NCBI GenBank assembly: GCA_951406725.2 | Contig: OX597836.1 | Location: 27,838,001 to 27,902,000 of the forward strand | Length of the DNA stretch: 64,000 bases | DNA from: Octopus vulgaris | Lineage: Eukaryota | Direction of reading: 5' to 3' | In this document: in pieces, positions 17,281-64,000 of the stretch | Position numbering within the stretch: the first letter of the stretch is position 1 | How the letters are laid out: each line of letters begins with the position of its first letter | Notes under the pieces: model-generated | What the model saw: only the letters and a program-made list of their open reading frames with translations | The model's database searches: none | What the model was told of the DNA's origin: nothing | Translations under genes and position numbers: made by a program

Positions 17281-17349
17281 AGGTGCAGGCGTAGCTGTGT
17301 GGTAAGAACTTTGCTTCGCAATCACATCGATCCGGGTTCAGTCCAACTG
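17281..17349 (+). mobile_element. SINE A head, truncated by a PLE insertion
   Basis: GGCGTAGCTGTGTGGTAAG...CCGGGTTCAGTCC. Confidence 0.7.
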
Positions 17350-17547
17350 ACGGATATTTGTCCTCATCTTGTTTGTTGTTAACACAACGTTTCGGCTGAT
17401 ATACCCTTCAGCCTTCATTAGGTGTCATGGGGGAAATTTCGAACCTGGGTTCTCGTTCCTAAGGTATTTTTCGCTCACCAGCACCGCGCTCTTAACCACT
17501 AAGCCATTTGCCCGTGGGCATATGGCGTAGTGGTTAAGAGCGCGGGC
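17347..17547 (-). mobile_element. PLE pseudo-LTR fragment with hammerhead and fold-back tRNA-like segment
   Basis: Matches 31500-31565 and 63487-63656; inverted pair CCGCGCTCTTAACCACTAAGCCATTTGCCC / GGGCATATGGCGTAGTGGTTAAGAGCGCGG. Confidence 0.8.
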
Positions 17548-31347: not shown

Positions 31348-31444
31348 AATATATACATCTATATACATATTCATACATTAATACATACATATGTATATAT
31401 TCATACAGCAATACATACATGCACACATACATGCAAATATACTA

Positions 31445-31673
31445 CAGTTCTATAATTAAGAGATGAGGAATTATGTACATTATTTACATTATTTACATTT
31501 GACGGACATTTGTCCTCATCTTGTTGTTAACACAGCGTTTCGGCTGATATACCCTCCAGCCTTCTCCAAGACACCTGATGAAGGCTGGAGGGTATATTAG
31601 CCGAAACGTTGTGTTAACAACCAAATAAGATGAGGACAAATGTCTGTCAAATGTAAATAATGTAAATAATGTA
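31445..31673. mobile_element. PLE inverted pseudo-LTR pair
   Basis: About 31477-31564 is the reverse complement of 31580-31673; same family as 17347 and 63430. Confidence 0.85.
31570..31615 (+). ncRNA. Minimal type I hammerhead ribozyme
   Basis: GACAC-CTGATGA-A-GGCTG..TAGCC-GAAACGTT-GTGTT: intact core, stems I and II, palindromic stem III. Confidence 0.85.
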
Positions 31674-62712: not shown

Positions 62713-63564
62713 GAATAAACGAATGCACTTTAGTCTTGTCCATACGGCAAATTTGTGACACGGCGAAGTTGTCTCATGGCGAATCTTCATTCCGATTGGG
62801 CGAAATTTTCTTTGGCGAATTTTCCGGACTCGGTCGGAAGGGAATATTCTTACGATTCTCGCAGGCAATCCCAGATAGATGAGATTCAATAAAGTAGCTG
62901 TTTTATCTGAATAGAAGTTGTTAGATACTAATTTTATAACTATGAAGAATTTATATCACAGAAGACGTGTCCAAATGTTCCATAAGATTGGTTTTAGCAG
63001 TTTTATATCATGCATTGTCGATTAATGGTTTCATTGCTTAAAGACTTCCGACGTAACGATTACCGGATCCCAGAGCTTTGAATAATTAGCAGAGAGAAAT
63101 GTCTGGCCGATTCGTGGTCATTACAAGGAAGAAACTATTTTATCGTATGTATTTATGTATGCATGTATGTAGGCATACGGCGAATTTCAATACAGTTTCT
63201 GGCTACAAAATTCCATTCTCAAAATACCGAGCACCTCTGCCCTATGCTAGAACACATTGGTCAAAGTGAGACGCATGGAGAACGAACTTCATACTGCAGG
63301 ATTACAATATGAACTTCTGAAAAATGCAGCCGAGCTACTGCTCTGCAACACGTCAAAACAGTTCCTTCATTCTGGTATTCATCCATTTCATAGCTTATCT
63401 CAAGAATTCAGAATATATCTGAATCCGCTATCAGATTCTACAGTTCTATATTTAAGAGATGAGGAATTATGTACGTTATTTACATTCGACGGATATTTGT
63501 CCTCATCTTGTTCTTAACACAACGTTTCGGCTGATATACCTTCAGGTGTGTTCGGGAAATTTCG

Positions 63565-63648
63565 AACCTGGTTGATCCTGCCAGTAGTCATATGCTTATC
63601 TCAAAGATTAAGCCATGCAAGTGTAAGTTCATGCCGTAAACGAATGGT
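63565..63648 (+). pseudogene. 18S rRNA 5'-terminal fragment
   Basis: AACCTGGTTGATCCTGCCAGTAGTCATATGCTTATCTCAAAGATTAAGCCATGCAAGTGTAAGT: 3 differences in 64 nt from the conserved eukaryotic SSU 5' end. Confidence 0.93.
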
Positions 63649-63689
63649 ATTTTTCGATATTATTATCATTATTATTATTATTATTATTA

Positions 63690-63752
63690 CTTGGAATCGA
63701 ACTTGGAATCTTGGGGTTAGTAGCCCGCGCTCTTAACATACGCCATATGTCC
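63690..63752 (-). promoter_or_regulatory. tRNA-like Pol III type-2 promoter segment inside the PLE 3' region
   Basis: Reverse strand GGACATATGGCGTATGTTAAGAGCGCGGGCTACTAACCCCAAGATTCCAAGTTCGATTCC; B box GTTCGATTCC; intact A box TGGCGTAGTGG in the copy at 17523. Confidence 0.65.
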
Positions 63753-64000
63753 GTGGGTAATTTTAGGGTTTATAAATCTAATATTTTTCTATCTTTCCTT
63801 ATTACCTGTTTCCATATGCTGCTCATATCTGCACACGGTCTGCTTAGGAGGTTGTTGAGTCCTAGCATATGTACTGCTTCTTTTAGTTTTCGTATTTTCC
63901 AGTGGTGTTCTCTTTCTATTATTTTAACTTCCATACATGATCAGCTATACCCGATTTATATCGATTATCTCCTCGTGTCACAGTTTTGCGGTGATCGTCT

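Follow-up and report, generated by a model that had tools for sequence, protein, structure and literature searches.

What brought a piece of the 18S rRNA gene into the pseudo-LTR (pLTR) of a Penelope-like element (PLE) in Octopus vulgaris, and was the donor an RNA or a DNA molecule? The piece lies near the right end of the window, the whole 64,000-nt stretch of DNA analysed here, where a first-pass annotation had attributed it to an RNA template captured by microhomology.

An 18S fragment between two shared words

Alignment to the rDNA array of the same genome identifies the insert as nucleotides (nt) 2-84 of the 18S gene, identical at 81 of 83 positions (Table 1). The two substitutions are nt 34 G>A at 63598 and nt 43 C>A at 63607. 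The insert begins at the 5' end of the RNA, at nt 2, is 3'-truncated and lies wholly within mature 18S, without poly(A) and without 5' ETS. The Rfam model SSU_rRNA_eukarya matches it from model position 1 (E 1.4e-05) under the gathering score, and no Rfam family matched the window at the gathering score. A repeat finder run over the entire window gave output dominated by microsatellites.

The locus at 63554-63656 reads GGGAAATTTCGA - ACCTGG - 74 nt - GGT - ATTTTTCG. The 74 nt (63572-63645) stand between the two words where paralogues hold 14 nt, a replacement that had been described from a single copy and is upheld by the comparison with paralogues. The target thus lost 14 nt, and the host is collinear with its paralogues on both sides. 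The GGT homology expected at the right junction is present in 18S (...AATGGT|GAAACC) and in the element (...TAAGGT|ATTTTT). At the left junction a 7-nt word had been proposed; a word is indeed common to the element and 18S, but it is the 6-nt ACCTGG, because the species' own 18S begins with T after an ETS that reads ...GGTGA. For the same reason the insert holds no ETS, which settles the suggested check for a match reaching into it.

Table 1. Features of the insert locus and of its host element in the window (positions of the window unless stated otherwise)
Feature	Position	Strand	Basis
Target-site duplication (as read), left copy of the 15-nt repeat CCGCTATCAGATTCT	63425..63439	+	
Decayed, 5'-truncated PLE copy, ~1107 nt	63440..64000, on to L001:2485 (G000:C23:27902546)	-	
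Putative type-I minimal hammerhead remnant, 11 nt short of intact copies	63516..63550	-	read by eye
18S rRNA gene nt 2-84	63566..63648	+	alignment to own rDNA
Left shared word ACCTGG, in element and 18S nt 2-7	63566..63571	+	
Right shared word GGT, in element and 18S nt 82-84	63646..63648	+	
(ATT)n run, part of the element family	63659..63689	+	
Broken RT/GIY-YIG frame, 3' end, stop at ~63770-63772	63770..64000	-	
Paralogue pLTR fragment with uninterrupted 14-nt middle (comparison copy of the first-pass annotation)	17349..17473	-	

The insert matched the genome at 43 places, including nine spaced ~18 kb apart in a tandem array. Exact matches to the uninterrupted 31-nt word of the element number 3366 genome-wide; the left junction has one, and no further copy of this insert was found. 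The 29-nt word bearing the nt-43 change is likewise unique in the genome, and the joint flank of this locus was not found at any other of the 49 matches of the 18S-start word. An rRNA-derived SINE, which would consist of many copies of one fusion, is rejected by the single-copy junction. No target-site duplication surrounds the insert, and the longest direct repeat nearby, a 6-mer, belongs to the element itself. The orientation of the ORF remnants confirms that the insert is antisense to the PLE strand. No function is predicted for it.

The host is a decayed Penelope-like element

The second copy of the 15-nt repeat CCGCTATCAGATTCT lies outside the window, at L001:2486-2500 (L001 being the locus of the insert). 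The broken frames of the host resemble the ORFs of its paralogues, which match RVT_1 (E 3.3e-11) and go to Atlas clusters at 0.97, where GIY-YIG is found on 12-15% of the cluster members; no Pfam match to GIY-YIG was obtained in the paralogue ORFs. By way of RVT_1 and the Atlas clusters, the host shows the order of a PLE, an RT followed by a C-terminal GIY-YIG.

Intact pLTRs of the family, read by eye against the features listed for minimal hammerheads in PMC4209133, appear to have an extra base after position 9, the pair G10.1-C11.1 and a palindromic 15.2-16.2. Rfam gave no hammerhead match in the window or in the pLTR copies, and the minimum-energy fold lacks the minimal hammerhead (z -1.64). 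The host had been annotated as having lost its hammerhead core. The copy is indeed shorter, with stem II 5' strand and part of the core missing, but the motif is not wholly deleted. The hammerhead region measures 38 nt here versus 48-49 nt in 29 of the 31 other pLTR copies listed, and the other two carry a 17-nt deletion of their own. A tie between the hammerhead deletion and the insert is unsupported, comparable deletions being present in other copies. More pLTR fragments of the same family, in inverted arrangements, lie at 31439-31670 and 17490-17547 of the window.

Short rDNA pieces are dispersed through the genome

The rDNA unit used for comparison (L072-L073, G000:C20:24018000-24037999) is GC-rich and 18,290 nt long, with an 18S of 2651 nt. 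Left ends around the 18S start were collected with a word at 18S nt 10-31, all 49 matches of which were examined together with six loci from the insert search; 18 whole or near-whole rDNA units were set aside, leaving 35 dispersed loci. ETS is carried by 23 of the 35, 12 with 8-26 nt of present or older ETS and 11 with longer or older ETS, some of these calls resting on weak 8-14-nt matches between loci. A further seven begin at nt 5-15. A clean start at nt 1-2 was seen in three (the insert locus, L076 and L081), and two more (L002 and L027) are ambiguous.

The left ends thus range from about -26 to +15, at ~0.6 per nt, which gives ~3 expected at the mature end versus 3-5 observed (P(>=3)=0.58, P(>=5)=0.18). 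There is no significant excess of left ends at 18S nt 1-2 among the 35 loci. An apparent pile-up at -2 to -6 dissolved into older ETS variants that extend further, and the apparent ends of several 28S-start pieces likewise gave way to older ITS2 extending further. Left ends crowd at -25, where the GC content of the rDNA unit falls from 0.76-0.88 to 0.40-0.52, a step that agrees with such an accumulation in an AT-rich host. No convincing target-site duplication was found around the 18S-start pieces in 32 loci.

Other parts of the rDNA unit are dispersed in a similar form. Short pieces derive likewise from mid-18S, the 18S end and the 28S start; they frequently extend into ITS, and ITS2 pieces belong to the same class. 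Among the spacer controls, a word present once per unit has 12 matches, all in or at rDNA units, and a word present four times has 119, of which 14 are solitary among the 100 listed. All 14 of these, when fetched, proved to be dispersed spacer pieces of 86-412 nt in unrelated DNA, and three sit inside SINEs with the same anatomy as the insert locus. Dispersed matches number 31 for the 18S start, 11 for mid-18S, ~18 for the 18S end and 11 for the 28S start; for the spacer words they number 0 (single-copy) and at least 14 (four-copy, at least 3.5 per copy). The surplus of coding over spacer anchors may be due to fast spacer evolution together with CpG decay. The host repeat flanks the rDNA piece collinearly on either side in 7 of the 42 loci tested, among them three with spacer donors (L191, L193 and L201), one with ETS (L026) and one with mid-18S (L099).

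Two dispersed loci start exactly at 18S nt 1, without ETS and without a shared word on the left: L076 and L081, whose pieces (nt 1-64 and 1-69) are 100% identical to the present rDNA. At L085 (G000:C21:35198300-35200000), 18S nt 1-130 is repeated head-to-tail in four decayed copies, restarting three times at nt 1, with junctions at which nt 129-130 (TA) coincide with nt 1-2. This arrangement could derive from a small DNA or RNA circle, or from template jumps. L076 and L081 are better RNA candidates than the insert locus, and L085 too is a better place for such a test.

A repair patch as the favoured origin

The insert is most likely the scar of an ordinary repair event and one among dozens of its kind. 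We favour an origin by end joining, in which rDNA supplied a DNA patch for a PLE copy already in place; this reading is probable though by no means secure. From the joints and the class of similar loci, which are observed, we infer the break, the nature of the donor and the enzymes. A break would have occurred in the pLTR of an already integrated copy, where 14 nt were trimmed. A 3' end reading ACCTGG would then have paired at 18S nt 2-7 with rDNA DNA, either a loose fragment or the array serving as a copying template. Copying or capture of 77 further nt would have followed, and GGT would have served to join the remaining end, by a polymerase-theta-type reaction or by NHEJ, after which the patch would have decayed neutrally. 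Polymerase-theta end joining is a model for microhomology-guided repair patches of this kind. The capture by microhomology proposed at the outset is supported. The piece derives from the 18S start, words are shared at both joints, the deletion is small and the insert is antisense and single-copy.

The first-pass annotation had gone on to conclude from the mature 5' end that the template was RNA. The start is not supported as a discriminating mark of this kind, given the lack of a significant nt 1-2 excess among the dispersed 18S pieces and the occurrence of spacer pieces of the same kind. On the two strands of the 18,290-nt unit the word ACCTGG has a single occurrence, at 18S nt 2; because of this uniqueness, a DNA end carrying the word lands at the mature 18S start. 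A DNA-repair patch is likely because dozens of similar short rDNA pieces exist, many from regions outside the mature RNA. Against a DNA donor stand the left end within one base of the mature end and the absence of ETS, the nt-1 starts of L076 and L081 without a shared word, the restarts of L085 at the same base, and dispersed matches that are commoner at the 18S start than at other anchors. Transcripts of the precursor or of the spacer are themselves conceivable sources of the ETS-bearing and spacer pieces.

The strongest rival, which we regard as possible but doubtful, has mature 18S rRNA template the repair of a break in the element already present. The right end would prime with its 3'-CCA on the GGU of nt 82-84, an RT (LINE or PLE) or polymerase theta would run off the 5' end, and the cDNA would be joined through ACCTGG after the loss of one base. 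This route would account for the nt 2 start without ETS and for the 3' truncation, and the exact nt 1 starts of L076 and L081, the nt 1-130 repeat of L085 and the predominance of the 18S start among dispersed matches speak for it as well. Precedents described for L1 point the same way, namely tailless retrocopies (PMC5322556) and antisense, 3'-truncated 5S/tRNA pieces with the RNA start at the joint (bioRxiv 10.1101/2025.02.02.635956). A human survey, however, reports only two tailless 18S copies, both 5'-truncated (PMC5322556). There is also no significant mature-end excess and no duplication around the insert, and by our computation the chance that a fixed RNA end meets a 6-nt partner within 14-35 nt is just 0.3-1.5%.

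A Poseidon PLE protein is described as preferring ATT for nicking, its own pLTR included (PMC11167929), and ATT follows the right junction of the insert. As the mark of a PLE nick this motif is uninformative, ATT or its complement starting at 4.9% of the element positions. Given the exact nt-1 starts at L076 and L081 and the repeats of L085, this genome may possess an RNA route. Somewhat less probable again is the wider proposal that, besides DNA capture, a germline route reverse-transcribes mature 18S to its first base, the cDNA closing breaks without target-site duplication, possibly where a Penelope enzyme nicks its own pLTR; its fossils would be the insert locus, L076, L081 and L085.

It is very improbable that the PLE acquired the piece while it was itself integrating, with second-strand synthesis switching template twice, first to 18S RNA or rDNA and then back. 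The ages allow it: the host has 12 of 230 minority columns and lies ~4.9% off the family centre, versus 2 of 83 for the insert off rDNA, and the two are inseparable (Fisher p=0.37). The orientation argues otherwise for the first strand, since a template jump there would require antisense 18S as template. The RT jump in first-strand synthesis that had been offered as one form of the RNA-template explanation is thereby excluded, leaving RNA at a break as its surviving form. The element is collinear on both sides of the insert, the same anatomy is found in SINE hosts, and no second copy carries the insert, all of which speaks against uptake on integration.

We consider it similarly far-fetched that the locus is an assembly chimera of a repeat with high-coverage rDNA reads. 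Neither junction is spanned among the contig pieces listed in the Logan sets X1, X2, X3, X4 and X18, where rare paths drop out and a filter takes away some records. Two further copy-specific stretches, L001:1485-1489 and 1904-1932, stand at depth 0 in the same sets, and three runs carry the flank together with the first 23 nt of the element. The contigs therefore drop copy-specific paths, since such host-specific stretches are at depth 0 although the flank is present. Raw runs X21 and X22, sampled at about 3 in 100, gave 2 and 0 reads on the locus, none over the 18S part. Against a chimera stand the two private substitutions, with the nt-43 change in a unique word, the shared words at both ends, the collinear element on either side and the many similar loci. 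Four contigs that bridge L001 1510-1585 with 14 other letters were considered as an empty allele and rejected; they begin at 1493, without the private bases of this copy, and were treated as paralogues.

Comparison with known systems

Insertions described elsewhere share parts of this anatomy. Yeast breaks are described as capturing pieces of rDNA, mtDNA and Ty, the rDNA mostly by NHEJ (PMC10802722). The insert resembles these in its short rDNA donor, its length within the tens to hundreds of nt, its trimmed target and its joint microhomology. Unlike them it is fixed in the germline of an animal, inside a repeat, and its repair pathway is a proposal.

Tailless retropseudogenes, described for therian L1 (PMC5322556), share with the insert the 5' part of an RNA gene, the 3' truncation, the lack of poly(A) and a 3-nt complementarity at the 3' joint. 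In contrast to them, the insert shows a 14-nt loss instead of a target-site duplication, a longer word at the 5' joint and a 3' end that is not A-rich; it is not filed among them because it has no target-site duplication. The antisense 5S/tRNA-LINE-1 twin-priming chimeras (bioRxiv 10.1101/2025.02.02.635956) likewise hold an antisense, 3'-truncated RNA piece whose RNA start faces the 3' part of the element. In those chimeras the RNA piece is the end of the insertion, inside the duplication, whereas here it is internal and the element resumes, running ~900 nt beyond the insert to the second 15-nt repeat instead of ending as twin priming or template switching would have it.

The host itself agrees with Penelope/Poseidon PLEs in its RT and GIY-YIG-like remnants, its terminal pLTR with a putative minimal hammerhead and its short tail (PMC11167929, PMC4209133), and differs from those described in being 5'-truncated, broken and 11 nt short in the hammerhead. 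Among the papers listed by our literature searches and in the passages cited here, rDNA patches of this sort are not described for a genome of this kind; the main text of PMC13282606 does not contain the word "rRNA".

As a neutral scar, the single locus carries little weight alone and is useful as an entry to its class. Dozens of short rDNA pieces lie in high-copy repeats, whose paralogues let the empty site be rebuilt, so that in an invertebrate one can count germline repair events at breaks and how many of them drew on RNA or on DNA. Should a full catalogue show a real surplus at mature rRNA 5' ends, it would document, in fossil form, repair templated by rRNA and the copying of foreign RNA by PLE or LINE enzymes.

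Further observations on the dispersed pieces

Several features of the dispersed class and of its source are recorded here in their own right. A spacer motif containing TATATT recurs four times in the rDNA unit and is a candidate promoter repeat. The spacer piece at L198 (244 nt) stands between 10-nt direct repeats, TAGACATTTT. Among the mid-18S pieces, those at L098, L101, L119 and L121 end in the A/T-rich nt 855-864, and 18S nt 761-763 is the starting point at L098, L118, L121 and L122. At L118 (G000:C6:80645525-80648546), pieces 763-845 and 17-65 of 18S lie adjacent in opposite orientation, at ~1450-1586 of that locus. Older ETS and ITS2 variants that are missing from the present array survive in dispersed pieces (L025, L026, L028, L077, L078, L080, L082-L084, L088, L089, L092-L094, L158, L169 and L172-L174), which constitute a fossil record of spacer turnover.
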